A model generated the notes under the pieces. That model worked only from the letters and a program-made list of their open reading frames with translations. It was not told where the DNA came from and searched no databases. From NCBI GenBank assembly GCA_045656225.1, contig JAZOQU010000022.1, forward strand, positions 4,732 through 68,731: DNA of 64,000 nt, written 5' to 3'. Below, piece by piece: positions 2,392 through 57,292 of this stretch. The translations under genes were made by a program, and so were the position numbers. Source of the DNA: Kiritimatiellia bacterium (GTDB lineage: Bacteria > Verrucomicrobiota > Kiritimatiellia > RFP12 > UBA1067). Each line of letters begins with the position of its first letter. Within the stretch, counting starts at the first letter, position 1.

Positions 2392-4163
2392 TTACCCTTC
2401 CTCCTTATACGCGCGACTATCTGGGAAGCTCCGAGATTCTTAAATCCGAGAGCGAGAAGAATCTTGCCGAAGAAGTGGCGTGAAATCGCCTTAATCTCCT
2501 TTATTTCGATACCGTCGGCTTCACAGAGCGCCTTGAAATCCTTAAGCGTTATGCAGTGAATGTTCGGGGTGTCGTACCACTGGAACGGAAGCGCCTTCGA
2601 AACGGGAAGACGTCCGGCAAGTCCGAGAGTAAGACGAATGCGGTACGCCGCGAAATTCGGGAAGGAAACTATCGCTTCGCCCGCAATGCGAAGAGCCTCG
2701 TCGAGAAGACCGCGCGGATTCTTAACCTCCTGAAGCGTATCGGAGCATATCGCGACGTCATAATGATTATCTGGAATCACGGAAAGCCCTTCGTCGGCAT
2801 CTTCCCAGTACGACATGTGACCGTCGGCCAAGGTCTCCTTGAATTTGTCGATATCGATCTCAACACCATCGCCCACGACATTCTTATCTTCGCGCAGGAC
2901 GTTCAGCATCGATCCGTCGCCGCAGCCGATGTCGATAACCTTTGCACCAGGCTTAACCATATCGGTAACGCCTTTGTAGAGACGGCGCTGCCAGTTCATC
3001 ACCTTGGGTTTGCGCGGTCTTAAAAAGCCGCCGATAAGCCCAGAGAGATCGTCGATATCGGTCAAAAACGAATCATGGCCCGTACCCGCTTCAAGATGGC
3101 AGTACGTCACATCCTTTTTATTTTTAAGAAGCGATTCTGTAATTTCCTTTGACTGACGAACAGTGAAAAGTACGTCGTTCTCGTATGAAACGACGAGGCA
3201 CTTCGCCTGAACGCGCGCGCACGCCGCGTCCAAAGAGCCGTATCTGTCGCCCGCGTCAAAAAGATCCATCGAGCGCGTGATATGCAGATAACTGTTTGCG
3301 TCGAAACGCTTGACGAACTTCATCGCCTGATAATCGAGATAGCTCTCGATCTGAAAGTACGTCTTAAAAGCGGCATCACGCTTAGCACGCTCTTCGGCGG
3401 GAGCCTCGACGAAATTTTTCTGAAGCTCGCGGCGGAACTTCTCCTGGAGGAGATCGCACGAAAGGTACGTGATGTGGGCGAGCTGTCTGGCGCTCGCAAG
3501 GCCGATTTTAGGCCCTTTGCCGTCACCTTCAAGATAATAGTCGCCACCCTTCCACGCCGGATCGTCGGTTATGGACGCGCGGCCGACGACGTCAAAAGCG
3601 AGAGCCTGGGTATTTAAAGAGGCCGAAGTCGCGATTAGACAGGCTTTCTCCATCTCATCGGGGCAGCGAGTAATCCAATCCATCACCTGCATTCCGCCGA
3701 AACTGCCGCCTATCAGCGCGGCGAGTTTTTTAACGCCGAGCTGCTTAAGCAAAAGTCTGTACACGTCGACGGAATCGGAAAAAGAATATTGGGGGAACGA
3801 AGAACCGTAAGGCTTACCGGTATCGGGATTTATCGACATAGGGCCCGTAGTCCCGCTGCATCCGCCGAGAACATTCGCGCAGATTACATGATAATGATTC
3901 GTGTCGATCGCTCGACCGGGACCGATCATAAGCTCCCACCAGCCGCTCGGCTTCTCCTCGCCGGGACGGATGCCGGCGACATGCGCGTCTCCCGTAAGCG
4001 CATGACAAATAAAAATCGCATTGTCTTCACGAAGTGGCGCACCGCACTCTTCGTAGACGACTTCGATTTTTTTCAAAACACCGCCCGGCTCGAGCTTAAG
4101 CCCCCCTTGGGGAAGTTCGAGTTCTATCTTCTTTTGTTCGACTATTCCTACACTTTCATTCAT
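2388..4163 (-). CDS. metX: Homoserine O-acetyltransferase MetX fused to a MetW methyltransferase-like domain
   Basis: N-terminal ~380 aa match the MetX alpha/beta-hydrolase (GGSFGGMQ nucleophile elbow). C-terminal ~200 aa match MetW ([12 protein letters not shown] motif, ICSDTLQEV). Confidence 0.8.
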
Positions 4164-4219: not shown

Positions 4220-4981
4220 TCACCCCAAGCGAAAGTCACCGGTTGCAACACCGAAATCTAACGCTGCGCGGATGACGCTGAGAGCGAAAATCGCGGCGGT
4301 TTCGGCACGCAAAATCTGCGAACCGAACGAGACGGGACGCGCTATTTCAAGAAGCGCCGAAAGCTCTTCCGGCGTAAAATCGCCTTCGGGACCGATGTAG
4401 ACGGCGTAATCGGCGTTCGGACTTTTAGCCTTGGCCGACATTACCTCTTCTAAAAGATGCTTAGGCGGCGGAGTCATAAGAGCGCCTATGAAACAGTTCG
4501 TTTTCTTAACCAGTTCAAGCGACTCTTTAAAATCGGCTATATCGGCAATCTCAGGGACAAAAACGGCATCGGACTGGCGCGCAGCCTCCTCGACGATGCG
4601 CATCCATCGTTCGCGCTTAACCGGGCGCTCTGCCGCATCCACGCGAACGATCGTTCTCGCCGAAATTACAGGGACTATTCTGTCGACACCGAGTTCAGTC
4701 GCTTTTTCAAGAGTCCAATCCCATCGCGAACCCTTTGTAACGCAGGCGAAAAGCGTAACCGACGATGAAGAGGCCTTGGCATGCCGCGTCAAATCTCCCG
4801 CCGCCTCAAGCTCACGCAAGGAGGCGTTGTAGCGATAAACGCGCGTTAAGCCCTTTCCATCAAAAAGTTCTACCTCCTCACCGTTCTTTGGACGCAGAAC
4901 CTTCAGATGATTCGCCGCCTCGCGCGAGAGGACCGGCGAATCACACTTAAGGGTTTCACTGTCAGCAAGAAGCCTGTGCAT
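4220..4981 (-). CDS. rsmE: 16S rRNA (uracil1498-N3)-methyltransferase RsmE family
   Basis: 253 aa with an RsmE-like PUA plus SPOUT layout (LFACVTKGSRWDWTLEKATELGVDRIVPV). Confidence 0.7.
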   Translation of the reverse strand: MHRLLADSETLKCDSPVLSREAANHLKVLRPKNGEEVELFDGKGLTRVYRYNASLRELEAAGDLTRHAKASSSSVTLFACVTKGSRWDWTLEKATELGVDRIVPVISARTIVRVDAAERPVKRERWMRIVEEAARQSDAVFVPEIADIADFKESLELVKKTNCFIGALMTPPPKHLLEEVMSAKAKSPNADYAVYIGPEGDFTPEELSALLEIARPVSFGSQILRAETAAIFALSVIRAALDFGVATGDFRLG

Positions 4982-6181: not shown

Positions 6182-7597
6182 TCAATTCATTATACGTTCA
6201 GACGCACCGGGAATTCCGAGAATCTTTCTGTATTTCGCAACTGTGCGCCTTGCTATAGAATACCCCTTTGATTTCAATAGAGACGAAATCCTGTCGTCAG
6301 AATGAGGTTTCTTACGATCCTCAGATTCCACTATCGCCTTCAATGCGTCAAAAACGGCATCCTTAGCAACCAAACCTCCATCGTTCGTCGCGCATCCTGA
6401 AACAAAAAAGCGTCTAAGTTCTATAGTTCCGCGCGGCGTTGAAACGTATTTGTTGTTTACCGTACGCGAAACTGTCGCCGCATGAACGCCTACAACATCA
6501 CCGATTTCCTGCATTGTCAAAGGCTTCAAACCTTTCAGACCCTTTTCAAAGAAATCGCTTTGAGCATCAAAAACGGCCTGTGCGATCGACGTAACGGTTT
6601 CCTCACGTTTCTTCAGCGCTTCGGCAAACTCGTTTACAGACGCTATTTTAGCACGCAAGTACTCTTTCGTTTCGGAGTCGGTCGCGGGATCTTCAAGCAT
6701 CTTGAGATAACGCGGCGAAATCCTTATTTCCGGCAGACTTCTCGCATCTACCCTCGCTGCCCAGCCATTAGCCGTCTTTACCGCATGAATCTCAGGATTC
6801 ACATAGGACACCCCCTTACCCGAACGCGAATACGCCCGCGCCGGACGGGGATCCAGGGTCCGCAAGGCAGAAAGCACATCGGCGTACCGTTCATGGGAAA
6901 TGCCGAGGGTTTTCTCGACATTTGCGAGGCGTCCTTCCGCAACATCCTTCAAAAGCCCATTCTCGAGGAGTTCGCGCACCTCATCCTGATATGGCGAGGA
7001 ATCAAGTTTATCAAGCTGGGCGAGAAGACATTCCTCAAAAGTCGTTGCGCCGCACCCGGGAGGGTCGAACGTCATTATCACGCCAAGAACTTCACGGATC
7101 TTCTCTTCATTTTCCCCGGTCACCATCATGATGTCCGGCATAGACCCGGAAAAATAACCGTCATCATTGAGTTCTCCGATTAAAATTTCCGCCAATTGAA
7201 AATCATCTTCTTTAAGCTCAGAGGTTTTTATCTGTGAACAAAGATGCTCCTCAAGGGTCTCTTCGCTCGTTCGCGACTCGAGAAATCTTTGACGCCGGTC
7301 CATAGCCTCGGCATCGGCTTCATAAAACGAATCCGGCGCGGAATCATCGTCTGGATAATCGTCTTCGCGGGCTCTCTCTCTATCGGCGGTTTCACGCTCC
7401 TTCTGGGAAACGGTATCCTTCTCAAGCGTGCGCTCGACATCGTCGATAACAGGGTTCGTTTCGAGTTCCCGGTTCAATTCGACGCGCAGTTCAGGAAGGC
7501 TCATCGCCAACATGTCAAGCCCGCGGAGCATCCGCGGCGCGAGAACCATAGACTGCGACTGGGACTGCCGCTGCGAACCGGATAATGTCTGAGGCAT
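6182..7597 (-). CDS. rpoN: RNA polymerase sigma-54 factor
   Basis: C-terminal RpoN box ARRTVAKYR, an HTH region and an acidic region II; 471 aa. Confidence 0.9.
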   Translation of the reverse strand: MPQTLSGSQRQSQSQSMVLAPRMLRGLDMLAMSLPELRVELNRELETNPVIDDVERTLEKDTVSQKERETADRERAREDDYPDDDSAPDSFYEADAEAMDRRQRFLESRTSEETLEEHLCSQIKTSELKEDDFQLAEILIGELNDDGYFSGSMPDIMMVTGENEEKIREVLGVIMTFDPPGCGATTFEECLLAQLDKLDSSPYQDEVRELLENGLLKDVAEGRLANVEKTLGISHERYADVLSALRTLDPRPARAYSRSGKGVSYVNPEIHAVKTANGWAARVDARSLPEIRISPRYLKMLEDPATDSETKEYLRAKIASVNEFAEALKKREETVTSIAQAVFDAQSDFFEKGLKGLKPLTMQEIGDVVGVHAATVSRTVNNKYVSTPRGTIELRRFFVSGCATNDGGLVAKDAVFDALKAIVESEDRKKPHSDDRISSLLKSKGYSIARRTVAKYRKILGIPGASERIMN

Positions 7598-9288
7598 TAC
7601 TGCTCCTCAGTAACGCGCATGATTTCCTTGACGCTCGTAACTCCGCGAAAAGCCTTAGACCAGCCGTCTTCACGAAGCGTCTTCATGCCTTTGGCCATGG
7701 AACGGTTGCGGATCTCCGTCGCGTTTTCACGACGGACGATCGCTCCCTCTATGTCTTCATCGACCTCGAGCACCTCGAATAAAGCGCGACGCCCCTTATA
7801 TCCCGTTCGCGAACAGGAATCACACCCTATGGGCTCGAAAACCGTATTCTTTTCGGGCGCGTAATCAAGAGTGTAATACTTCATGTCGAGAGGGACTTCC
7901 TTCATACACTTCGGGCAAAGACGGCGGCATAGACGCTGCCCCATGACGCCGGCAACGGCCGAAGCGATCAGAAACGGCTCAACACCCATGTCGATCAGAC
8001 GCGGGAAAGCGCCTGCCGCATCATTGGTATGCAATGTCGAAAACACCATGTGACCCGTAAGCGATGCGTTAATCGCGATTTCAGCGGTCTCGCGGTCACG
8101 GATTTCACCGACCATGATGATATCGGGATCCTGACGCAGAAACGCTCTCAGTGCGCGCGCGAACGTCATACCGATATCGGCCTGCATCTGAACCTGATTG
8201 ATACCGGCCATATGATATTCGATCGGGTCCTCGGCAGTCATGATTCTCACGTCGATCTTATTGACTTCGTGAAGGAATGAATAAAGCGATGTCGATTTAC
8301 CGGAACCGGTCGGTCCGGTGACCAGGAAAATCCCGTTCGGACGGCGGATAATCCTGTCGACTACGGCAAAATCACGATCATTGAATCCAAGGTCGGCCAT
8401 CTTGACGAAACTGCCGCTCTTGGCGAGAAGACGCAGAGAAATCGACTCGCCGTACGCGGCAGGCATGGTTGAAACGCGGATATCGATATCCTGTCCCGAA
8501 ATTCTGATGCCGATACGACCGTCCATCGGCAGACGCTTCTCGGCGATATCGAGATTGGCCATAACCTTGATACGCGAAATGATCGCCGCCTTCAACCTGT
8601 TCAACTGCGGCGGGACGTCTACCTTGTGAAGCATACCGTCGATTCTATAACGTATCCGAAGTTCGGTTTCCTGAGGTTCGATATGAATATCGGTCGCGCC
8701 TTGACGGTCGGCTTCAACGATGATCTGGTTCACAAAACGGACGATCGACGCTTCCTCGCCCATTTCATTGACGTCGATCTTGGTCATCGTGCTGAATTCA
8801 TCGTCGACGGAATAGCGGTCGTCGTCGATCATTTTTTCAATCGCATCGGCACCGACACCGTAATATTTTTTGACGGCTTTCTCAACCTCGTCCTTGGTAC
8901 ATAGCACCATTTTCATCGGACAGTTGGCGACAAGCCTCAATGAATCCGCCGGAGTCGTATCAAAAGGATCTGAAACGACAATCGTCATCGACTGGCCGTC
9001 GTAACGGTACGGTAAAACATTGTATTGATAAACGGCACTGGCAGGCACTTTAGTCAAAGCGTCCGCTGTAGGTTGATTATGCTCAAGATCGACCACCTCA
9101 AGACCAAGCGCGGAACCGAACGCCCCAAGAACATCGATTTCGCGGTGACCGCCGAACTTGACAGCGGCTTCGCAAAGTCCCATTTCAGGATTCTCAGTCC
9201 TGCCGGAAATAATGCGGGAAATCTGCTCATCGGAAAAAATCCCGGCAGATTTAAGAACAATGTTCGTTAGAGACAAACTTTCACTCAT
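7597..9288 (-). CDS. gspE: GspE/PilB-family secretion ATPase (type II secretion / type IV pilus assembly)
   Basis: N-terminal T2SE_Nter-like domain, Walker A GPTGSGKST, and a tetracysteine CxxC...CxxC motif. The stop overlaps the rpoN start by 1 bp. Confidence 0.8.
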   Translation of the reverse strand: MSESLSLTNIVLKSAGIFSDEQISRIISGRTENPEMGLCEAAVKFGGHREIDVLGAFGSALGLEVVDLEHNQPTADALTKVPASAVYQYNVLPYRYDGQSMTIVVSDPFDTTPADSLRLVANCPMKMVLCTKDEVEKAVKKYYGVGADAIEKMIDDDRYSVDDEFSTMTKIDVNEMGEEASIVRFVNQIIVEADRQGATDIHIEPQETELRIRYRIDGMLHKVDVPPQLNRLKAAIISRIKVMANLDIAEKRLPMDGRIGIRISGQDIDIRVSTMPAAYGESISLRLLAKSGSFVKMADLGFNDRDFAVVDRIIRRPNGIFLVTGPTGSGKSTSLYSFLHEVNKIDVRIMTAEDPIEYHMAGINQVQMQADIGMTFARALRAFLRQDPDIIMVGEIRDRETAEIAINASLTGHMVFSTLHTNDAAGAFPRLIDMGVEPFLIASAVAGVMGQRLCRRLCPKCMKEVPLDMKYYTLDYAPEKNTVFEPIGCDSCSRTGYKGRRALFEVLEVDEDIEGAIVRRENATEIRNRSMAKGMKTLREDGWSKAFRGVTSVKEIMRVTEEQ

Positions 9289-30219: not shown

Positions 30220-30470
30220 TTGCCGCTCCCCTTCTCAATCAAATTCACTTTAATTACGCTTACTTCATCACGTCTGAGAGAAAGATGAAATCCTCTAACC
30301 GCCAATTCAAATGGATCGCCGAGAGGAGCAACATTTATAATCTTAACCTTAACTCCACGAGTCATCCCTAAAGCGAGTAACTTGGCACGATAAGCGGCAT
30401 TACCGAGTTTATACCCTGTAATTTCGGCAATCTGCCCTTTCTTAAGTTGATCTAATGTCATTACGAACAC
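30216..30470 (-). CDS. feoA: Ferrous iron transport protein A
   Basis: 84-aa SH3-like FeoA domain immediately upstream of feoB with a 4-bp overlap. Confidence 0.8.
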   Translation of the reverse strand: MFVMTLDQLKKGQIAEITGYKLGNAAYRAKLLALGMTRGVKVKIINVAPLGDPFELAVRGFHLSLRRDEVSVIKVNLIEKGSGK

Positions 30471-30481
30471 TCTTTCTAAAT

Positions 30482-30512
30482 GTTAGATGCGGTAAAGTTT
30501 ACCAAATCTAAC
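30482..30512. promoter_or_regulatory. Nested palindrome in the feoAB upstream region (candidate metalloregulator operator)
   Basis: GTTAGAT gc GGTAAAGTTTACC aa ATCTAAC: a 7-bp outer inverted repeat enclosing a 13-bp inner palindrome, about 15–40 bp upstream of the feoA start. Confidence 0.4.
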
Positions 30513-30609
30513 TTTCAATGTCAACCGCGAATTTGACCGAAATAACCGCGCCTCTTCCCTTTTGATTTCATTCATTCTACGGTACAAAAGGTATGGATAT
30601 TTGGAGAAC

Positions 30610-39788: not shown

Positions 39789-40508
39789 TCAGTCGAGAGA
39801 GAGGAATTCTTTAGCCCGCTTAACTGCCGCGTCATCGGCCGGTAGAACACCTTCAAGCGGATACCTTAAGCCGAGATTGCGCCATTTTTCAACGCCGAAA
39901 TCGTGATAAGGTAGCACCTCTACACGCTCGACGTTTTTAAGGGAGCTGATAAACTCGCCCATCTTCTTAAGGTCGTCCTCGCCGTCAGTCAAGCCTGGAA
40001 CGATCACGCGCCTAATCCAAGTCGAAACACCCTTTTCCGACAGATAACGGGCGAAATCTAAAATCTGCGAATTGTCCGCGCCGGTAACTTCACGATGAAG
40101 TAAAGGATCAAAAGCCTTGATATCCAATAAAACCGTATCTGTCGCGGCGATCAAACGCTCAATCGCCGCGTCACCGCGCTTAAACGAACCGCCTGATGTA
40201 TCAAGACAAGTCGTGACCCCTTCTGCGTGGGCGAGCTCAAAAAGTTCAGCTACAAATTCCGCCTGCAAAAGCGGCTCTCCCCCCGAAAGCGTTATGCCGC
40301 CCTTTTCGCCCCAATAATCGCGGTAACGCAAGGCGCGCTTCAAAACTTCTTCGGGAGAAAATTCCATCGCAGGCTTTTCGTTCGCCCACGTATCGGGATT
40401 ATGGCAATATACGCATCGGAGCGGACAGCCGTGCAGAAATACGATAAAGCGTACTCCAGGGCCGTCCGCCGCGCCGAACGATTCAAAAGAATGAATCTTA
40501 CCTGTCAC
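39789..40508 (-). CDS. pflA: Pyruvate formate-lyase activating enzyme (radical SAM)
   Basis: [15 protein letters not shown] radical-SAM motif. Confidence 0.9.
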
Positions 40509-42760
40509 AAGCTCTTGTGGCAGGTGCGCCTGATCACGTCGAGCTGCTGCTCGCGCGTAAGATCGATGAACTTAACGGCGTAGCCGCTTACACGAATCGT
40601 AAAGTTAGCGTATTCGGGCTTTTCGGGATGCTCCATCGCGTCGATAAGCTTCTCCGTACCGAAAACGTTGACGTTAAGATGGTGAGCGCCGCGCGAGAAA
40701 TAACCGTCCATGATCGATACGAGCGTCGAAACGCGCGTTTCGGGATCGTTGCCTAGCGCAGAGGGATGAATCGTCTGGGTATTGGAAATACCGTCGAGCG
40801 CGTATTCATACGGAAGCTTAGCGACGGAATTGAGCGAGGCGAGAAGCCCGTTCTGCTCGGCGCCGTACGCAGGATTCGCGCCAGGAGCGAGCGGTTCGCC
40901 CGCTTTGCGACCGTCGGGCATCGAGCCCGTCGCCTTACCGTAAACGACGTTGGAGGTAATCGTAAGAATCGAGGTCGTCGGCATCGCGTTGCGATAAGTA
41001 TGATGGCTCTTAATCTTACGCATAAACTCCGTCAAGAGCCACTCGCCGATCGCATCGGCGCGCTCATCGTCGTTGCCGTAACGCGGGAAGTCGCCCTCAG
41101 TCTCGTAACCGACCGCGAGCCCCGTCTCATCGCGCACGACGCGCACTTTAGCGTACTTGATGGCCGAAAGGGAGTCGACCGCATGCGAGAATCCGGCGAT
41201 ACCGGTCGCGAACGAGCGCTTAACGTCAGTATCGATAAGCGCCATCTGAGACGCCTCGTAATTATAGCGGTCGTGCATAAAGTGGATGATGTTAAGCGTA
41301 TGGACATAGAGCCCAGCGAGCCAATCCATCATTCGCTCGTATGCGTGCAACACTTCGTTGTAATCAAGAACGTCGCCAGTTATAGGGCGAAACTCGGGGC
41401 CGACCTGTACGCGCGTCACTTCATCGACGCCACCGTTGATGGCGTAAAGAAGACACTTCGCGAGATTGGCGCGTGCGCCGAAGAACTGCATCTCCTTACC
41501 GGTCTGGGTAGCCGACACGCAGCAGCAGATGGCGTAGTCGTCGCTCCAGACGCGGCGCATCACCTCGTCGTTCTCGTACTGAACGCTGCTCGAATCGATC
41601 GAAACCTTAGCGGCGTAATCCTTAAACGCTTTCGGGAGACGCGGCGAATAAAGGACTGTGAGATTCGGTTCGGGCGAGGGACCCATCGTTTCGAGCGTAT
41701 GGAGAATGCGGAAGTCGGTCTTCGTTACCATACTGCGCCCATCGCCGCACATACCGGCGAGGTTGATCGTCGCCCAGACGGGATCTCCGCTAAAAAGCTC
41801 ATTGTACGCCGGAATTCGCGCGAACTTAACCATGCGGAACTTCATCACGAGGTGATCGATAAGCTCCTGAGCCTGAACCTCAGTAAGAACGCCGCGCTTA
41901 ATATCGCGCTCGATATAAATATCGAGGAACGTCGAAATGCGCCCGATCGACATCGCAGCACCGTTCTGAGTCTTAATTGCGGCGAGGTAACCGAAGTACG
42001 TCCACTGAACGGCCTCGCGCGCATTCGTCGCGGGACGCGAAATATCGTAGCCGTACGAAAGAGCCATCTCCTTCATCGCCTTAAGAGCGCGAATCTGGGC
42101 GGTAACCTCTTCGCGTCCGCGAATTACGTCTTCGGGCATGGAACCCGCGCCGACCATCGGCAAATCGTGTTCCTTCGCCGCGATAAGACGGTCGATACCA
42201 TAGAGAGCCACACGGCGATAATCGCCTACGATTCGCCCGCGACCGTACGAATCGGGAAGGCCCGTAATAATCTTATTTTTACGGGCTATGCGCATCTCAG
42301 GGGTGTACGCATCAAAAACGCCCTGATTGTGAGTCTTATGATACTCGGTAAAAATGCGGTGCAATTCCGGATTAGGCGTATAGCCGTAAGTGCGAAGAGC
42401 TTCTTCGGCGAGCTTTATACCACCATAAGGCATAAACGCACGCTTAAGAGGTTTATCAGTCTGAAGACCGACAACCTTTTCGAGATCCTTGTCGAGATAG
42501 CCGGGCGCATGCGAGGTAATCGACGAGACGATGTCGGTATCCATATCGAGGACGCCGCCCTTCGCGCGCTCCTCATGCTGAAGCTCCTGAAGCTTACCCC
42601 AAAGAACATTCGTCGCCTCTGTAGCATCGGCGAGAAAATCCGGTCCGCTCTCGTAAGGGGTATAGTTAAGACGTACAAAAACGGCTACGTCGATATCTTT
42701 TTGCCATTGGCCACCGACGAAACCGTCCCATCCAGGCTCATTGATTTCTTCTAAGTTCAT
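40505..42760 (-). CDS. pflB: Formate C-acetyltransferase (pyruvate formate-lyase)
   Basis: Glycyl-radical C-terminus RVSGYAV, typical PFL length. The start was moved to [14 protein letters not shown] (42760); the track's 42856 start adds 32 non-conserved residues across the leader. Confidence 0.9.
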
Positions 42761-43060
42761 ATCCACAACCTTATTTTGAAGAATAAAGCCCAGGCGAACG
42801 ACACACTCGAGTCCCCTCGACAGCGGTCCACGTGGTAAACTCCACTTCAGGCACACGCCCGTAATCGCCAGTCCCGCTTGAGAGATATTATATCATAAAA
42901 TCTATGATAATCCTACGTCCCGCCTCCGAGTTCTGCTCTCGGAGCTCCATCGCCGAGCCCCGTCCTTTTCGTCCTACACCGCACTCCCCGTCCTGACCTT
43001 GGCGCTCCTGCGCCAAGCCTATCCCTAACGCCCGTCCATCCTGCGCCGAGGCGAGAATGC
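42761..43060 (-). promoter_or_regulatory. pflB 5' leader and promoter region: long, structured, purine-rich on the coding strand
   Basis: A 300-bp gap. It has a TATAAT-like element (rc of gatattatatcat) and several 7-bp hairpins (CTCCGAG...CTCGGAG; TTGGCGC...GCGCCAA). Confidence 0.4.
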
Positions 43061-43424: not shown

Positions 43425-43457
43425 TGTATTAAATTCCTTTCTTTATATCACAAATCG

Positions 43458-43560
43458 CCTTATAGGAAAAATAAACTATGTTATCATACCACAACACGCC
43501 TTATAAGGTCAATTAGAAGCCCATCTTTATAACTGTAGCCACTAAGAATCCAAAATCATA
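43458..43560. repeat. Direct repeat copy 1 (~100 bp) carrying two CCTTATAAGG-type palindromes
   Basis: Aligns with 44499..44600. The core ccttataaggNcaattagaaNcccatcNttataaNtgtagccactaagaatccaaaatcata is near-identical in both copies. Confidence 0.8.
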
Positions 43561-43628
43561 ATGCCCCAATATCATGTCTGCATTGGATGCAGCCCCTTAC
43601 CAGCGCTTTTATATAAATGCGGTGGTCG

Positions 43629-44108
43629 CTACAGCCTCTCAACTGCAGCGAAAACTTTTGCCGCGAGAGAGTCTGATAGCTGCCACATACCGACATTGCC
43701 GCGGCATGGGATGGGTTCGGGTAAGCGCCTTACGTTCGAGAGGTCCCACCAGAACCGATAGCCTTCATCCCATTTCTGCTTTGGCGTTGGCTTGGACTTA
43801 TAGACACCATCCTCCAACACTAGATTTAAGCCATCCCGCGCCTTGTAGTCACAAACTGCAATAATCTTACCAGGCCAATCCTTAACCTCGCGCCAAGAAG
43901 GAAGCTTCTCAAAATCCTCGTCCGAAAGCTCATGCGCAGCCATCGCCATAAACATCCCATATTGCTCCTTGCAAAACGACTTCGAACACGAAATCGCCAC
44001 CCGCCCTTCCCTCGGCTCTGGCATCATACTGCGATTCTCCGTCCGCTTGATTCCGTAAAGAATCATAATCGCATACGATCCAGTACAAGTAAAGGCGTTC
44101 ATAATCAA
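43629..44108 (-). CDS. ASCH-domain protein
   Basis: ASCH signature GxKxxExR present as GIKRTENR. About 70% amino-acid identity to the N-terminal half of the ASCH–RadC fusion at 49492..50319. Confidence 0.6.
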   Translation of the reverse strand: MIMNAFTCTGSYAIMILYGIKRTENRSMMPEPREGRVAISCSKSFCKEQYGMFMAMAAHELSDEDFEKLPSWREVKDWPGKIIAVCDYKARDGLNLVLEDGVYKSKPTPKQKWDEGYRFWWDLSNVRRLPEPIPCRGNVGMWQLSDSLAAKVFAAVERL

Positions 44109-44171: not shown

Positions 44172-44492
44172 TCAGCAAGCTGCATAAGATCCCTTCTTAG
44201 TTTTACGCCCCGCCCTCTGCCGTTTCTTTTCAATATCTCTTCTCTTAAACAGTGATTCATCTATCTCAGGCGGTGCAATAGCCATAAGCCAATCCACCTT
44301 ACCGAGAGTACGGCAGTATGCAAGAAGCGAAAGAGTTGAAGAATTTTCCCCTAACTCAAGATTACGAATAGCCTTAAGCGACACGCCGCTCCTATCAGCA
44401 GCAGTTTGCTGTGATATATTAGCGGCAAGTCGCTGCGCCCTCAAGTTTTCACCCAGAACCTTGAGCATTTCTTCTTTTGTTCGATATATCAT
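44172..44492 (-). CDS. XRE-family helix-turn-helix transcriptional regulator
   Basis: Classic HTH_XRE: LRAQRLAANISQQTAADRSGVSLKAIRNLELGE. Immediately upstream of the ASCH gene. Confidence 0.6.
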   Translation of the reverse strand: MIYRTKEEMLKVLGENLRAQRLAANISQQTAADRSGVSLKAIRNLELGENSSTLSLLAYCRTLGKVDWLMAIAPPEIDESLFKRRDIEKKRQRAGRKTKKGSYAAC

Positions 44493-44498
44493 AAATCA

Positions 44499-44600
44499 TC
44501 TTATAAGGAAAATAAACAGCAATATTATAGCATAAGATTCCTTATAAGGCAATTAGAAACCCATCCTTATAATTGTAGCCACTAAGAATCCAAAATCATA
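44499..44600. repeat. Direct repeat copy 2 (~100 bp) carrying two CCTTATAAGG-type palindromes
   Basis: See copy 1. It lies directly upstream of the HTH gene start. Confidence 0.8.
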
Positions 44601-44848
44601 CAACTGCCCTGCGAGAGTTTTAAATTTCAACAAATCAAGCGTCGTTGTCCATAGTTTGCTTTCCTATGGCTTTAGCATAGACGACCTGGATGGATAGACG
44701 CTGAAATACTGTCTTGATTGCACATTAGAATTTTCCGCACAAGATTCTCATTTTCTCAAACGAAAGAAGATAACTCAAGATATTTGCCAGAAACACGAGA
44801 TTTTTGATTGCCTGCGCGGAGCTCGGCCCTAAGAAAGCACAAGATAAA

Positions 44849-44881
44849 AGTTGCAAAGTTGGTCAGACCTACTTTGCAACT
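44849..44881. repeat. 33-bp near-perfect palindrome AGTTGCAAAGT-tGGTCaGACCt-ACTTTGCAACT
   Basis: Inverted repeat read directly, with one mismatch pair. Homologous to the 45-bp palindrome at 45147..45191. Confidence 0.8.
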
Positions 44882-45146
44882 ATTATTACATCTAAGACTC
44901 CCATCACAACTTTGCCAATAGTGCAGCTGTACAATCTTACGATACGCTGTCCTTCGTGGAGAAGGCGAACTTGCGAATTGCGATTTTCGCTTTTTTGTGT
45001 TACACTACTCACCGTCTTAGGGAATTGGCCTTGCGACTTGTCGTATTGAGTCATCAAGCCCTGAGACATTTCTTTTGTTTCGGTTACATCGCAACAAACC
45101 TGACCATTTTCATTGTTTCACATTTAATCCGAGAATACAAATACGC

Positions 45147-45191
45147 ACCAAAAGTTGCAAAGTAGGTCTGACCTACTTTGCAACTTTTGGT
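45147..45191. repeat. 45-bp perfect palindrome (accaaaagttgcaaagtaggtc-t-gacctactttgcaacttttggt)
   Basis: 22-bp arms around a single central T, followed by TTATTT. Candidate bidirectional terminator, protein-binding site or MITE-like end. Confidence 0.8.
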
Positions 45192-45526
45192 TATTTCTTC
45201 GCTCCTCCGCATTTTGCGAAATCCGGCAAGCAAGGGATTGCGATAATCATTTACAAACAGGAAATTATCGGGATTTGCGCGACCGAAAAGCCCTCAGAGA
45301 TTGTGGATTGAGAAAGTTCGCAATCATACAATTACAATATCTTCTCAGCATTCGAAACAGAACTCTACCGCCGCATTTTGAGAAATGCGGCGGTAACTAC
45401 AGACAGCAGAATGCCGCGTAAATATGCCGCTGGACACAGTTTGCAAACTATGGATTAGCAGACGCTATTTAATAAGTCGGTGATGGTGGTGTCGAATGGC
45501 ATTGTAGCATACAATCATCTTTTAGT

Positions 45527-47533
45527 TCAATTGCCAAGCAGTCGCGAAAGCAGCGATCTTGACTTAAAGTCAATATCAAAGAAGTCTTTCGCCGCTGCCA
45601 AATCCATGATGACACTATCACGAGAACGTTTTGCACAAAGATTCTCCGGCAGCTCCTTCATCAATCGGTCAGCGTCCCAGTTTTCGCCAGCAACATATCG
45701 AAGTGTATTCATCCTCTTGTTTACTTCGAACGCATTGGGATTTGCTTGCCACGCCGTTTTAATTGTCTGTATGGCATATTTACCAGTGACCTTCTCACTG
45801 AAATAATCCTCCAAAGACAACTCCCGTATGAATGTAGGACAATTTGACAAATTTTCACTAAATATGGAACGCAAGATTACCGACGAAGCCTTAAGTATAT
45901 CTGGCGACTCTGATTCGGGGTTATCATCCTTGAGCGCCTCCATCAATTCAAGAACAGAATCAAGCATCCTACGAAGATACTCACGATAAAGCGCCGTTCC
46001 GATTTTTTGCTGAACAGATCGGACGATATTGCTTTTCATTACCTCCGTATTTGTAAGTCCAGCCTGAACGCGACAAATTACAGTTCGCCTTATAACTTCC
46101 TGTGCGACAGCCTTCACATCCTCATTTGCACTAATTACTACAGCGGGATAATTGAGAAGATGCTCAAGCGAACCGAAATCATCATTCTTAATCGTCTCAA
46201 TTGCGTGTTGATTAAACCTTGTATTAGTCAAATCGTCAACAATGATGGGCGCCCCTTGCACAGTACGTCGAAGCCCATCAATTGTCGTACGAGTAAACTC
46301 AGGCGCACTTATTTTCACCTTTTGTCCAATCATCATCTTAAGTAAGGTTTCCAGAAATGACGTCTTTCCAGCCTTAGACTGTCCATAGATGAGACCAAAC
46401 ACAGGATACGGAAGGGTTTTCTGATCATAACGCAAAGCTGTATCACGCATTACAGCCATAAAAGGCGAACAGAAGAACCAGTTCGCGAACTCGTAGTACC
46501 TATATTGCATCCCTTCGCAGTCACCATGGAATCTCTCAAAACCATTCATGTAACGAATAAAAAGTTCAACGTCAGATTTAATTTCATCTTGAGTAGGATG
46601 CAAATCAAGCGTAACACCATTAAGCAGCACACAACTCTTTTCAACATCAACGGCGAGCTGCGGATATTCACTCCTCAGTTCCTTCTCATGTTCGCTTTCC
46701 TTCACTTGCTGCCGTTTTACCTTCTGTATGACATCAGGCGTTACAAGAACTTTTCCTTTCCGCTTTTCTTCCTTTGAAATAGATATTGACGGCGCAATGC
46801 GTTTTGCCAAATTGCGAGTATCAAGAATAAAATTAACGTCCTCTTCCACATCCTTGACTGGCTCAATATAAATCGCCTTCTCAACCCTCGCAGTTTCAGC
46901 GATAGGTAATGCGTCTACATTCTCCGTGCTATCCGATATTTCAATAGCCTTTTTCGTTATAGTATCTACACTATCCTGTTTCAAATCCTCATAAGCCTCT
47001 TCAAACCGTTCGTATGCCTCCTGAGAATCAATATAACATATAATCTCTCTCTGTCGCCCGCCAAAAGCATTGAATGACATGTTTGCTGAACCGAATACAA
47101 CCCGAGCCCGTCCATCTTCCGCCTTGAGCAAATACAACTTTTCATGCGATAACCTTCTGCGCGCGACAAAAAGCCGCACATCACCACGCTCAACACGCGC
47201 AATCATCTTCTCCTTTGATGTAGAATCCGTCTTACGAATACGCTCCATTAACTTCGCCTGATAAGCCATTATCTCTTGAAGAGTATACGACATAACCTCT
47301 TCACATCCGAAAATAATTTCAGCGTCTTTGAACAAGTCAAGCAGTTGATATACAAAACCTATCCCCGATGAAAACGTAATTGCTTTGATTGAATTGAAAC
47401 CTGAAAAAAGTTCTTGCCACGTAATACTTTCTGAATAAACATAGTCCATCTTAACTACATCTATCTTGCTCATTCCACCATTTGACATCCCGTCAGATGA
47501 TGAAAATAAATCATCGCCAAAGTCTTTTGCCAT
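45527..47533 (-). CDS. Fused PLD-family nuclease and SF3-like P-loop NTPase (668 aa)
   Basis: N-terminal single HKD-type motif HEKLYLLKAEDGRARVVFGSANMS (HxK...D...GSxN). C-terminal Walker A GQSKAGKTS, Walker B IIVDDL, and a downstream VVISANE that resembles SF3-helicase motif C. Confidence 0.55.
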   Translation of the reverse strand: MAKDFGDDLFSSSDGMSNGGMSKIDVVKMDYVYSESITWQELFSGFNSIKAITFSSGIGFVYQLLDLFKDAEIIFGCEEVMSYTLQEIMAYQAKLMERIRKTDSTSKEKMIARVERGDVRLFVARRRLSHEKLYLLKAEDGRARVVFGSANMSFNAFGGRQREIICYIDSQEAYERFEEAYEDLKQDSVDTITKKAIEISDSTENVDALPIAETARVEKAIYIEPVKDVEEDVNFILDTRNLAKRIAPSISISKEEKRKGKVLVTPDVIQKVKRQQVKESEHEKELRSEYPQLAVDVEKSCVLLNGVTLDLHPTQDEIKSDVELFIRYMNGFERFHGDCEGMQYRYYEFANWFFCSPFMAVMRDTALRYDQKTLPYPVFGLIYGQSKAGKTSFLETLLKMMIGQKVKISAPEFTRTTIDGLRRTVQGAPIIVDDLTNTRFNQHAIETIKNDDFGSLEHLLNYPAVVISANEDVKAVAQEVIRRTVICRVQAGLTNTEVMKSNIVRSVQQKIGTALYREYLRRMLDSVLELMEALKDDNPESESPDILKASSVILRSIFSENLSNCPTFIRELSLEDYFSEKVTGKYAIQTIKTAWQANPNAFEVNKRMNTLRYVAGENWDADRLMKELPENLCAKRSRDSVIMDLAAAKDFFDIDFKSRSLLSRLLGN

Positions 47534-47662
47534 ACATCCTCCTTAAATTAAACTTTTGATGAAAATGTTGTAATCTCCATTTCTATTAGCTCAAACCGAG
47601 AAAGTAGGTCAGACATAACTTCTTAATTAAAAGTGTTAACATAAGCATCTTTACCTAATATC

Positions 47663-49491: not shown

Positions 49492-50319
49492 TTAAAGTTT
49501 GTCCATCACTGACACATACCCTCGCCCTTCATCGCAATCAGGCGAACCAAGGATGAGGTGGTCAAGAAACTTGATACCAAGCAGTTGGGCGGCGGATTGC
49601 AATGCTTTAGTAATCTGCAAATCAGCCCTGCTCGGCGTAGGATTGCCGCTTGGATGATTGTGAGCGACGATGATTGCATCTGCCTGCGCCTTGAACGCCG
49701 CACGAAAGACTTCTCCCAAGTCCACGGTTGTTGTGCCTTGCGTGTGTCCGAGAGATACAAGCACAGGCAAACCAATCGGGCGACACTCCGCGTCAATCGG
49801 CAACACAAAGAAACCTTCCTGCTCACCCGCAATCGGAATTGCCACACGAAACAGCGGATAGGCGTCATCTGCCGTCTCAATGCGCGAGTTCAAAGCACAT
49901 TCAGCCGCAGACACTTTTGCCGCAAGATCGGACGGCATCTGCCACATGCCGACGTTGCCGCGGCAGGGAATCGGTTCGGGTAAACGCACAACGTTCAACA
50001 AATCCCACCAATACGGATAACCCTCGCCCCAAGATTCGGCTTTCTGCCTTTGCCGCGCCTTGTAGTCGCACACGCCAACAATCTTGCCCGGCCAGTTCTT
50101 CACCTCGCGCCACGCGGGCAGTTTCTCGAAATCCTCTGGCGACAGGCTCACCGACGCCCACGCGATGAACTGCCCGTACTCTTCTTTGCAAAACGACTTC
50201 GAACACGAAATCGCCGCCCGCCCCTCGCACGGCTCCGGCCACGCGCTGCGGTTCTCCGTGCGCTTGATTCCGTAAAGAATCAATATCGCGTATGCTCCAG
50301 TGCATGTAAAGGCGTTCAT
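49492..50319 (-). CDS. ASCH domain fused to a RadC-like JAB/MPN domain
   Basis: N-terminal ASCH (GIKRTENR) paralogous to 43629..44108. C-terminal JAMM-type motif VAHNHPSGNPTPSRADLQIT typical of RadC. Confidence 0.7.
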   Translation of the reverse strand: MNAFTCTGAYAILILYGIKRTENRSAWPEPCEGRAAISCSKSFCKEEYGQFIAWASVSLSPEDFEKLPAWREVKNWPGKIVGVCDYKARQRQKAESWGEGYPYWWDLLNVVRLPEPIPCRGNVGMWQMPSDLAAKVSAAECALNSRIETADDAYPLFRVAIPIAGEQEGFFVLPIDAECRPIGLPVLVSLGHTQGTTTVDLGEVFRAAFKAQADAIIVAHNHPSGNPTPSRADLQITKALQSAAQLLGIKFLDHLILGSPDCDEGRGYVSVMDKL

Positions 50320-50606
50320 AACTTACTTTGTGAGACTGCCGCGAATAATGGCAAATCAGTTTCTGAATCAACAAGTTCTATATTCTCGTTGTTCTCTCCA
50401 TAGAACTCAAATTTATGCTCGCGGCGAGAAATGCAAACGCCGCGTTTTTTCAATTCAACTGCAAACCACCGCCGTAATGACTGCGGCGTTGCTGCGAATT
50501 CATCAATAGAATCGAAATCTTCCCAACCGACATTTCCGTCAGCATCAGAAAATGGCTTGATTTTTAAAAGTTCATAGGTCATATTGACAGGACTTTTCAT
50601 TGACAT
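50316..50606 (-). CDS. Hypothetical protein (96 aa), first gene of the ASCH–JAB/GmrSD operon
   Basis: ATGA overlap with the downstream ASCH–RadC gene. No recognisable motif. Confidence 0.4.
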   Translation of the reverse strand: MSMKSPVNMTYELLKIKPFSDADGNVGWEDFDSIDEFAATPQSLRRWFAVELKKRGVCISRREHKFEFYGENNENIELVDSETDLPLFAAVSQSKL

Positions 50607-50780
50607 TCTGTTTTGATGCTATTCATCTCAGTTGTATAATTATCCTTACATAATTGGTATTCACAACGGAAGAAATCACTAGCACCATCATCATTCGTAT
50701 TCTTCATGAAGTGATAATTTTCCCCATGTCGTAAGCAAGATTAATCAACAGTTCTGTCGCCTTCACATAACAACACTTCA

Positions 50781-55013: not shown

Positions 55014-55217
55014 TCATTCATGCACAACGTCCATAATATCGCCAACATTGCAATTTAGCACCTTGCATATTCTCGTCATCAGATCAAACGAGATATACTC
55101 ATCTTTAGATAACTTTGCAAAGGTAGACGAAGACGCGCCGACAGCTATTCGCAGATCTGTCCGCGTCATTTCTTTATCTATAAGAAGCTTCCACAATTTC
55201 TTATACGAAACACCCAT
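55014..55217 (-). CDS. Small HTH (XRE-like) DNA-binding protein, candidate R–M controller (C-protein-like)
   Basis: 67 aa from MGVSYKKLWKLLIDKEMTRTDLRIAVGASSSTFAKLSK. AGGAG RBS 7 nt upstream. Extended -10 element TGgTATAAT about 35 bp upstream. Confidence 0.55.
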   Translation of the reverse strand: MGVSYKKLWKLLIDKEMTRTDLRIAVGASSSTFAKLSKDEYISFDLMTRICKVLNCNVGDIMDVVHE

Positions 55218-55344
55218 ACCATCTCCTAATTGACGTGTAATATTATACCAAATCACATCCTAAACATACAAATATAACCTTTGACTTTTCAAAGGTGGAC
55301 AGATATGAAAAAACTGCATTTTATACCTTATTTCATACCCAAAC

Positions 55345-55400
55345 AGTGCGCATCTCTCACTTGAAAAGTGCGCACTTCTCGACCAAGAGGTGCACACTTC
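55345..55400. promoter_or_regulatory. Three direct repeats (a)GTGCGCAcTTC phased at 22 bp
   Basis: agtgcgcatctc at 55345, agtgcgcacttc at 55367, ggtgcacacttc at 55389. They lie between small ORF copy 1 and the HTH promoter. Confidence 0.6.
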
Positions 55401-55457
55401 TTTTCTTGGAGCTTACGACACCCCATCAACCGCTTTGCGCAATCGCCGCTTGTCGGA

Positions 55458-55619
55458 TTACGCTTTCAGCAGCGCAAGAATACCGCATAAAATGATTATC
55501 CCGAGAAACCACACAACACACTCGAGGCACGACTGCGTGCCGTCGCATGAATCATCCGGTCCGGAAGGCATCCTTAAGCCTCTCTCAAACTCCTCTTTAA
55601 ATTTTTCCCATCTAGTCAT
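55458..55619 (-). CDS. Small tail-anchored Cys-rich membrane protein (53 aa), copy 1; below the ORF-track size cutoff
   Basis: MTRWEKFKEEFERGLRMPSGPDDSCDGTQSCLECVVWFLGIIILCGILALLKA, with RBS AAGGTGA 4 nt upstream. Lies inside a ~180-bp repeat (55444..55627). Confidence 0.45.
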   Translation of the reverse strand: MTRWEKFKEEFERGLRMPSGPDDSCDGTQSCLECVVWFLGIIILCGILALLKA

Positions 55620-55758
55620 AATCACCTTTTATCATAAAATATAAACCACACCTACCCCAATCCTGTTAATCCTGTCAAAAAAACTTTATCCACAAATCTG
55701 CACATATCGACACAAATCAATTTGTGGAAATTTGTGACGATTTGTGGACTCCAACTCC

Positions 55759-57126: not shown

Positions 57127-57148
57127 CTTCACATATTGCAATATGTGA
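57127..57148. promoter_or_regulatory. 22-bp perfect palindrome ttcacatattgcaatatgtgaa upstream of the 56183..56917 promoter
   Basis: Read directly. About 40–60 bp upstream of the extended -10 element. Confidence 0.6.
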
Positions 57149-57292
57149 AATAAACCTCGATGAACAGCCCCTCGGCTATTCTGAGACAGGATCAACAGGA
57201 TTGGAATTGCAGTATTTTCAACCACGAAATACACGAAAACTAACGGGGACAATCCCCTCGGCAATTACCCAGAATAATGGTTTATTTTACTT

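Follow-up and report, generated by a model that had tools for sequence, protein, structure and literature searches.

Terminator-like palindromes in a mosaic gap of a Kiritimatiellia defence island

What accounts for an interval of 1,034 bp that holds two long, related palindromes and no intact gene in the middle of a bacterial defence island? The question is raised by a 64-kb stretch of DNA from a Kiritimatiellia bacterium (the whole stretch is called the window here), in which positions 44493-45526 separate the start of hipB, an XRE-type antitoxin gene (44492), from the stop of a gene for a PLD/NgoFVII-like nuclease (PLD gene; 45527). This is the longest gap of the window, and it sits in a low-GC segment (approximately 43-57 kb) that constitutes a defence and toxin-antitoxin (TA) island on what is probably a Kiritimatiellia chromosome. 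An earlier sequence-only reading, made without database searches, had described a gene-free spacer of 0.9 kb with no open reading frame (ORF) above about 80 aa, in a region whose other gaps were under 300 bp. The gap indeed lacks an intact gene and none of its ORFs matches Pfam; however, it is longer than described, contains coding remnants and has ORFs of up to 88 aa, and gaps of 390 bp (30220-30609), 461 bp (50320-50780) and 710 bp (55049-55758) occur elsewhere in the window. As argued below, the gap is best explained as a recombination scar carrying portable terminator-like hairpins that are real and non-random.

Two homologous palindromes and their recurrence

Both palindromes, neither of which is assigned to a strand, lie where the sequence-only reading had placed them, and both exceed chance expectation. 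P1 spans 44844-44886, with 21-nt arms (flanks included) that are 90% complementary; its core (44849-44881), which has one T.T mismatch, reads AGTTGCAAAGT-TGGTCAGACCT-ACTTTGCAACT. P2 (45147-45191) is a perfect 45-bp palindrome with 22-nt arms and a 1-nt centre, is followed by TATTTCTT, and is the longest perfect hairpin in the 64 kb. As had been claimed, the two are homologous, with 39 nt in common at 92-95% identity, 304 bp apart. A further hairpin, which had been put at about 45373, also exists, its exact span being 45366-45395; this element, H (TACCGCCGCATTT-N4-AAATGCGGCGGTA, with CCGCCGCATTTTGAGAAATGCGGCGG at 45368-45393), has 13-nt perfect arms and likewise carries no strand assignment. 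Perfect hairpins with arms of at least 9 nt number only four in the 64 kb, the longest two being P2 and H, and in shuffled sequence such arms never exceed 12 nt. The predicted RNA folding energies of P2, P1 and H are -32.8, -19.3 and -22.2 kcal/mol, with z-scores of -8.5, -5.1 and -6.2. A structured non-coding RNA had been proposed on sequence alone, but these extreme z-scores only reflect the palindromes, and there is no Rfam match: at the gathering threshold, the only match in the window is a ZTP riboswitch (42781-42885), and a permissive search of 44300-45700 returned only sub-threshold eukaryotic miRNA/snoRNA noise on the palindrome. CRISPR, retron and type III TA RNAs were also considered and rejected, there being neither array periodicity nor a reverse transcriptase nor tandem repeats.

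The 14-nt half-site of the palindromes, with at most two mismatches, was matched seven times against 0.31 expected. The recurrence that had been reported at about 47596 does lie between the GmrSD and PLD genes, at 47601-47614 (AAAGTAGGTCAGAC, no strand assigned), 49 nt past the GmrSD stop. We designate it P*, a possible decayed half-site; a match this long to P arose in 4/200 shuffles (p about 0.02) and is only suggestive, and P* does not fold and falls within a 1,955-bp GmrSD segment that is absent from two related loci (L026/L027). A covariance model (R1) detected P1 and P2 and no further diverged copy in the 64 kb, and on 235 kb of related loci it found only one AT-rich palindrome, unrelated to P. 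The hexamer TTGCAA, which occurs within each P arm and at the centre of one H variant and of two other palindrome families, Q and R (see below), was rejected as a special motif, its 28 copies in the window against 16-21 expected being no clear enrichment.

The 29-bp core of P, TTGCAAAGTAGGTC-N-GACCNACTTTGCAA (14-1-14), is the same in all eight copies, an identity partly imposed by the search pattern. Whereas the sequence-only reading had allowed that the palindromes might prove unique and not conserved, the core recurs in seven other contigs from metagenomes or metagenome-assembled genomes (MAGs), namely L009, L010/L013, L011, L012 and L003/L005. These derive from one match among 185,579 species-representative genomes (a Kiritimatiellia MAG, with one exact copy on one contig) and four metagenome contigs, plus L003/L005. 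Three contexts, the window family, L011 and L010/L013, have unrelated flanks. In all copies P is intergenic, at or just past the end of an ORF, and beside defence operons, TA genes or other accessory genes. The L011 copy, identical to P2 at 42/42 nt, stands 8 nt after a phage Gp15-like ORF and before a metallophosphoesterase gene. On the approximately 60% GC contig of L010/L013, P follows by 10 nt a 1,089-aa helicase/nuclease (TnsA-like/S24) ORF and lies between convergent operons, facing relB-yoeB. In L009, P comes after a Z1/DUF4420/AIPR/Dcm defence operon and before hipBA, and an ORF stop codon overlaps it there, as one does at P1. No regulator gene is common to these contexts.

Searches of mobile DNA were negative. 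Sensitive BLAST of 44560-45530 against plasmid and phage collections gave no match, and exact-pattern scans of viral contigs for the P core, H and the core of the spacer between P2 and P1 (S) returned nothing; the Q pattern matched once in viral contigs, inside an apparent coding sequence, and this match is probably unrelated. Rfam and the plasmid and phage collections that were searched contain none of P, H, Q and R. P is an undescribed sequence family of a known kind.

The coincidence of the palindromes with homology breakpoints is one of three points that the sequence-only reading had missed, the others being that the spacer is a recombination mosaic and that the XRE gene is hipB with its operators. 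The edge of homology is the edge of P both between L009 and the window and between L012 and the window, in each case at P1, and P is 100% conserved over 40 nt, as against flanks that are approximately 88-91% identical. With letters for the flanks, the combinations are a-P-x (L003/L005), a-P-S-P-x (L012), a-P-S-P-y (the window) and b-P-y (L009); L040/L041 share the Macro-gene promoter with L003/L012 but have no P. A comparison with relatives, which the sequence-only reading had recommended for the segment between the palindromes, revealed that the P2-S-P1 block, with 265 nt between P2 and P1, is present in L012 and reduced to a single hybrid P in the allelic L003/L005. Flanks re-assort freely at P, and S plus one P shows presence/absence polymorphism.

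The outer eight pairs of the P stem vary yet stay complementary across the eight copies. Six of these pairs change on both sides, which 1/500 shuffles reach; for example, the outer pair of P2, C-G in the window, has become T-A in L012. One internal mismatch pair is shared by 6/8 copies, the copies at P2 and in L011 being perfect. This covariation of the outer stem points to a hairpin rather than to a protein footprint. In H, one stem pair is A-T or G-C among copies, further copies being found at 43596-43634 in the window and in L002, L003, L007, L012 and L025. The H loop has two forms, CTCAAA and its reverse complement, TTGAGA, on an unchanged stem (window 45366-45395, L007 116-145, L012 approximately 1199-1226 and 1611-1642, L025 8039-8072); either the hairpin inverts or the module inserts both ways.

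Composition of the gap

The gap is pieced together from the hipB promoter, a truncated second copy of such a promoter, the 3' remnants of two genes and the three hairpin families P, H and Q. Its first 110 bp are explained by the adjacent XRE gene, which is hipB with operators of its own. The gene (44172-44492, minus strand; Pfam HTH_3) is an orphan: relatives that are 69-76% identical then carry an overlapping 398-aa HipA gene, of which the window keeps only the last approximately 24 codons (44191-44120), the one place where tblastn with HipA matches. A full hipA is retained in the Kiritimatiellia MAG locus L009, and one XRE relative is annotated as Kiritimatiellae. The promoter/operator module (44493-44603, minus strand) scored 10/12 in a promoter scan, with a -35 element TTGCCT (44552-44547), an extended -10 element, TGn-TATAAT (44529-44524), and an inverted repeat; boxes of the CCTTATAAGG type lie at 44500-44510, 44538-44549 and approximately 44565-44575. 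The module is kept in L001-L009, and a box of this type is also kept upstream of distant hipBA loci. These features make the module typical of autoregulated TA promoters: its repeated dyad boxes, the predicted operators, overlap the -35 and -10 elements.

The operator box of HipB in E. coli is TATCC-N8-GGATA. The boxes here differ from it, as does the locus in its deletion of hipA, and the likeness to hipBA promoters is limited to 44493-44603, P, H and Q being unrelated to the boxes. Binding of HipB to P was rejected because the HipB box differs and distant hipBA loci have no P. A second copy of the hipB-type promoter/operator, 83% identical, occurs at 43444-43560, with the H copy at 43596-43634, before a 120-aa lipoprotein gene. 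HipB may also control this gene, since a copy of H and of the hipB-type promoter/operator stands in front of it.

Upstream of the hipB module, Q' (44648-44677, no strand), recognized by alignment with relatives, is a degenerate copy of Q that reads GCCATAGTTTGCAAACTATGGC in the relatives; directly upstream of it, L004, L006 and L007 lose homology with the window. The minus-strand segment 44725-44800 (ending in NILSYLLSFEKMRILCGKF and a stop) is probably the 3' end of a lost gene. It is kept in L009 and L002, where in L002 the position of the stop is retained although the codon differs (TAA vs TGA); frame-breaking indels occur further upstream, and Pfam gave no match for it.

The S module (44887-45146, 260 nt, minus strand) lies between P1 and P2 and is 98.5% identical in L012, the only locus in which its interior was found as DNA. 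Its minus-strand frame is open from 45117 to 44869, ending at a TAG inside P1. In its first 16 codons it matches the end of P0363, a 257-aa protein from metagenomes that is itself a weak match to the LPD3 domain; the following approximately 37 codons are found again where four small metagenomic ORFs on short contigs begin (relatives P0361-P0365). In tblastn, P0364 is homologous to S only after a frameshift and P0363 shows an upstream extension; all of the small-ORF relatives diverge completely after approximately 37 codons. The plus strand has a hairpin at 44973-44990 followed by T6 (to 44996) and another at 45014-45067 followed by TTTCTTTTGTTT. Because the open frame begins with a match to the end of an LPD3-type protein, the simpler reading is that S is a decaying gene 3' end with downstream sequence. 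It could instead be a functional unit that P1 and P2 merely flank, either a plus-strand small RNA or a minus-strand small protein of 66-83 codons, and some features would suit this: approximately 110 nt of S recur in five other contigs, three of the four substitutions relative to L012 are synonymous in the minus-strand frame, two of the synonymous changes are also compensatory in the plus-strand hairpin at 44973-44990, and the hairpin at 45014-45067 folds better on the plus strand (-22.6 kcal/mol, z -2.4). We consider a functional unit improbable, given that S has no Rfam or Pfam match, no convincing plus-strand promoter and no Shine-Dalgarno sequence before the ATG at 45069, that the frame's start resembles a protein end, that P0364 requires a frameshift and the relatives diverge, and that four other contexts have P without S.

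On the PLD side of P2, H' (45204-45227, no strand), identified from direct and inverted repeats, is a decayed copy of H 13 nt from P2, and the same arrangement of H, 13 nt and P is found in L003, L005 and L012. It is followed by filler (45228-45321, no strand) with a weak likeness (TTTCTCAATCC...) to the 3' ends of RadC-associated modules in L007 and L012, for which BLAST and tblastx gave no significant support. The truncated second copy of the upstream part of a hipB-type promoter module (45322-45365, minus strand) ends at TTGTATGATT, which reappears at 44603-44594. Positions 50-200 of L007 align to 45460-45311 and the alignment then resumes at 44604, with the 10-bp repeat AATCATACAA at 44594-44603 and 45322-45331. 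We rejected this repeat as the target-site duplication of a 718-bp insertion relative to L007, because two natural upstream variants exist intact and converge there; from these alignments, it appears to be a homology junction between variants of the region upstream of the hipB promoter. Next to H, the segment 45396-45458 (minus strand) consists of a linker and the Q palindrome (45435-45454), which together with H form a 3' unit of approximately 95 nt after the PLD gene (45458-45366). This unit also follows genes in L007, L012 (twice) and L025, and its five aligned copies have a mean identity of 77% and a consensus fold of three hairpins with one covarying pair. A tblastx search of the gap against all loci revealed nothing beyond DNA-level homology.

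The locus L025 is the corresponding hot spot of a relative, whose PLD gene is 96% identical. Homology between it and the window passes through Q and H and stops exactly at H (45366-45395). After H, L025 has a single 191-aa gene, a second H and then the end of the island; approximately 2.3 kb of the window, the whole gap feature included, replaces that single gene between two H copies.

Other repeats resembling these were observed. A fourth palindrome family, R (core CACATATTGCAATATGTG), occurs at 57128-57149, the far edge of the island in the window, as well as in L026 (approximately 4479-4496), 40 nt after the PLD stop, and in L032 (3276-3301) and L035 (839-864), after a Macro gene and between convergent genes. 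The approximately 60% GC contig that carries a P copy in L010 also has, at 3050-3145 and between convergent genes, an AT-rich palindrome of approximately 95 bp made of tandem AAAAGTTC units and their complement. An intergenic repeat, GGGACTCGT.AAGAC.AG...GCGATGCGGAAGC, follows successive genes in L026 (approximately 4690-4740) and L028 (approximately 6385-6430 and 8480-8530). The lineage appears to have several families of cassette-end repeats.

Terminators, recombination sites or operators

The reading that we prefer, with confidence that is evenly balanced, is that the P copies are portable bidirectional terminator or insulator hairpins that also serve as crossover points for the shuffling of cassettes. 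With its A-run, its 15-22-bp stem of approximately 47% GC and its T-run, P resembles bidirectional intrinsic terminators, in which a strong stem-loop is preceded by an A-tract and followed by a T-tract and which lie past stop codons and between convergent operons. P2, P1 and H have the stem-loop stability of an intrinsic terminator, folding far below shuffles, and the copies in L011, L013 and L009 and at P1 are located just past, or overlap, a stop codon or operon end. P2 passes a hairpin and T-tract test on both strands and H on the minus strand. In the gene direction, the 8 nt that follow the core stem contain 5 T or more in 5/8 P copies (not those of L003 and L013 or the P1 of L012), and most copies are T-rich on the opposite strand as well. 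P separates a defence operon from a TA gene in the window, in L009 and in L010/L013. The sequence-only reading had listed bidirectional terminators insulating island modules among its candidates; of those candidates they fit best, with the T-tract of L010/L013 and the lack of terminator enrichment noted below as exceptions.

We postulate that the gap was built by recombination in a chromosomal hot spot for defence and TA cassettes, and that it would have two working parts: (i) the autoregulated hipB promoter with its predicted CCTTATAAGG operators, and (ii) P, H and Q, portable hairpin families at cassette 3' ends. The P core would be extended to 33-45 bp by complementary A-rich and T-rich flanks, and its RNA hairpin would stop or insulate transcription both ways, while also protecting mRNA 3' ends; termination or insulation would be the selected function. 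In this way, the downstream TA or accessory gene, itself tightly autoregulated, would be shielded from read-through out of a defence operon upstream. As the only sequences common to otherwise unrelated cassettes, P, H and Q would therefore become crossover points for the swap, truncation and deletion of cassettes, probably by homologous or template-switch recombination, and the P2-S-P1 arrangement and the neighbouring remnants would be the debris of such crossovers. Ordinary recombination between the modules that loci share seems to us likelier than a dedicated system, because repeats of 39-45 bp suffice and because a GmrSD insertion (described below) joins at the ribosome-binding site (RBS)/ATG and not at a hairpin.

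Several observations weigh against terminator hairpins. The P core is identical where there is no other homology, although a terminator need not keep its sequence; the P stem is perfect and much longer than usual for intrinsic terminators; T-tracts are poor in the copies of L010/L013 and L003 and in the P1 of L012; and H and Q were judged to have none, though H passes the minus-strand test. Between the PLD stop and P2 lie 335 nt that include the Q-H unit, and P1 is approximately 350 nt upstream of hipB. Terminator-like sites are not enriched in the window relative to shuffles (25 vs 24.7, 25 vs 28.2 and 13 vs 16.1), and since they are not enriched in the rest of the window, the host may not rely on intrinsic termination. 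Finally, P copies are few and partly related by descent, and their apparent covariation could stem from gene conversion within the palindrome rather than from selection. Another possibility is that the palindromes have no selected function and are by-products of template switching or hairpin-mediated repair, hitch-hiking in a fast-recombining region. Correction of quasi-palindromes can create perfect palindromes and mimic covariation, the surrounding region is full of debris, and the copies are few; however, an identical core occurs in three contexts that have nothing else in common, one of them on a contig of approximately 60% GC, its position at ORF ends is consistent, and it is conserved well beyond its flanks. 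We give an origin without function only a slim chance.

P, and perhaps H, Q and R, could instead be a dedicated site of recombination or mobility, which we judge unlikely. In one version, P is a target or crossover site of a site-specific recombinase encoded in trans, in an integron-like cassette system with hairpin sites of its own; in the other, small non-autonomous elements with the half-palindrome GACCTACTTTGCAAC as their terminal inverted repeat insert into the centre of an existing P, and a miniature inverted-repeat transposable element (MITE) would be formed by the 303 bp between the two centres (44866-45168). Homology breakpoints coincide with P in every comparison, S+P is present or absent at an otherwise identical site, and the 'empty' allele has the one hybrid P that is expected for excision of a cassette or insertion into P. 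The core is kept without flanking homology, and ORFs end at or inside P, a placement often seen with cassette ORFs and attC sites. The loop of H is found either way round, the GmrSD segment absent from L026/L027 is followed by what may be a truncated P, and contigs with these modules are nearly all <3 kb. Identity over 39-45 bp, however, suffices for ordinary homologous recombination to produce the same patterns. Neither the 64 kb nor the ORFs checked near P in L009, L010 and L013 revealed an integrase or transposase; the single matching MAG has only one exact copy; and cassette boundaries without P exist, the GmrSD junctions in the RBS/ATG region among them. Resemblance to integron attC sites and clusters of attC sites lacking integrases (CALIN) extends to a hairpin site at the cassette 3' end with the ORF stopping at or inside it, to cassette presence/absence that leaves one hybrid site, and to a cargo rich in defence and TA genes, all in one orientation. 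We rejected P as attC in that the outer RYYYAAC...GTTRRRY boxes (the R''/R' consensus) are absent, P reading ...GTTGCAA...TTGCAAC... in the inverse order, its length is 33-45 bp vs 55-141 bp, and it is essentially symmetric, without the strand asymmetry of extrahelical bases. Neither intI nor another tyrosine recombinase gene was found in the window, and the RadC-GmrSD, HNH-Dcm and Dcm-YhcG boundaries have no P-type site. More specifically, P, H, Q and R might be the recombination sites, short and near-perfect palindromes, of an undescribed hairpin-guided, integron-like system of cassette exchange whose recombinase is encoded elsewhere or not yet recognised; this we hold to be quite unlikely.

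The MITE version had also been raised on sequence alone, as an element of about 340 bp. A discrete P1-spacer-P2 unit does exist, 96% identical in L012 and absent from L003/L005, and as an ORF-poor unit of approximately 300 bp with inverted termini of approximately 19 nt (the inner halves of P1 and P2), present or absent between allelic sites, it has a MITE-like form. This reading nevertheless fails on the empty site, which keeps a complete P in L003/L005, and on the absent target-site duplication; further, the interior resembles a gene 3' remnant and was found as DNA only in L012, and no cognate transposase is known. P loci also recall the pdif (XerC/D) modules of Acinetobacter plasmids, in which small modules, often of TA or accessory genes, are bounded by short dyads and shuffled between contexts, but pdif sites are 11-6-11 where P is 14-1-14, P is unlike dif sequences, and the setting of P is chromosomal. 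P also resembles the REP/BIME, ERIC and Correia-type repeats, short conserved palindromes at gene 3' ends in both orientations that are rearrangement hot spots and possible mRNA stabilisers. P differs from REP/BIME in being perfect rather than imperfect, in its few copies (two in 64 kb) and in its confinement to accessory cassettes, and no long ORF of the window matches the REP-associated transposase RAYT (Y1_Tnp).

Least probable, in our estimation, is that P is an operator for a dimeric DNA-binding protein encoded elsewhere that co-regulates or silences island genes, as the sequence-only reading had suggested in proposing a dimeric-regulator site. The perfect dyad with an invariant core in unrelated contexts would suit an operator, as would the position of P approximately 20 nt upstream of a good Macro-gene promoter in L003/L012, the location of Q just upstream of the hipB promoter, and the spacing of the two copies, which could loop DNA. 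The contexts of P, however, share no neighbouring regulator gene, HipB has a different operator of its own, no promoter is near the copies in L011 and L013, which stand at the 3' ends of ORFs and in one case between convergent genes, and complementarity reaches 45 bp through flanks that covary without being conserved.

The island and the meaning of its hairpins

The minus strand of the island carries NUDIX, YhcG, Dcm-type methylase, HNH nuclease, RadC-domain, GmrSD and PLD genes and, past the gap, the XRE gene, a 159-aa gene and the 120-aa lipoprotein gene; its flanks consist of housekeeping and glycan-degradation genes. The hot spot is bounded by the NUDIX gene on one side and on the other by a pfl operon with the ZMP/ZTP riboswitch (42781-42885, minus strand; 46.1 bits vs a gathering score of 39), which forms the right-hand edge of the low-GC island and lies directly upstream of genes for a PFL-like glycyl-radical enzyme (40505-42856) and its activase (39789-40508). 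The long ORFs of the window yielded no integrase, transposase or relaxase, and there is no tRNA or tmRNA within it and thus no tRNA attachment site.

Within the island, the GmrSD segment (49498-47544) is a 1,955-bp insertion relative to L026/L027, where PLD starts at most 20 nt after RadC; its junctions fall in a common RBS/ATGGCA region. The 159-aa gene after hipB (43629-44108), in which Pfam found no domain, is a DNA-level paralog of the N-terminal part of the 275-aa RadC-domain gene (50053-50319). At approximately 55060-55216 (minus strand), a short frame resembling a helix-turn-helix protein (MGVSYKKLWKLLIDKEMTRTDL...), preceded by a TGGTATAAT promoter similar to that of hipB, runs into the annotated start of the YhcG/DUF1016 gene. 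Contigs with identical hipB or close Macro or PLD relatives (L001-L008, L030-L041 and the homologue tables) are almost all <3 kb, and the protein clusters of these genes have many members; assemblies break at these loci, as expected where a sequence occurs in many contexts or strains. Exact look-ups of the PLD, GmrSD, RadC and lipoprotein gene products of the window retrieved no contigs, which places the genome of the window outside the collection searched.

If the hairpins are terminators or insulators that double as crossover points, they would give a concrete view of how a defence and TA hot spot is remodelled: short, strong 3' hairpins would insulate cassettes and, as their sole shared sequence, become the seams at which cassettes are swapped, truncated or lost. 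They would also help to explain the assembly breaks at these loci and offer a practical marker for delimiting cassettes in the poorly studied genomes of the PVC group. Were an integron-like system of cassette exchange at work, defence, TA and anti-defence cassettes would be reshuffled by it at a chromosomal hot spot of gut and rumen Kiritimatiellia; true site-specific recombination sites would matter much more, as a second, integron-independent solution to cassette capture.

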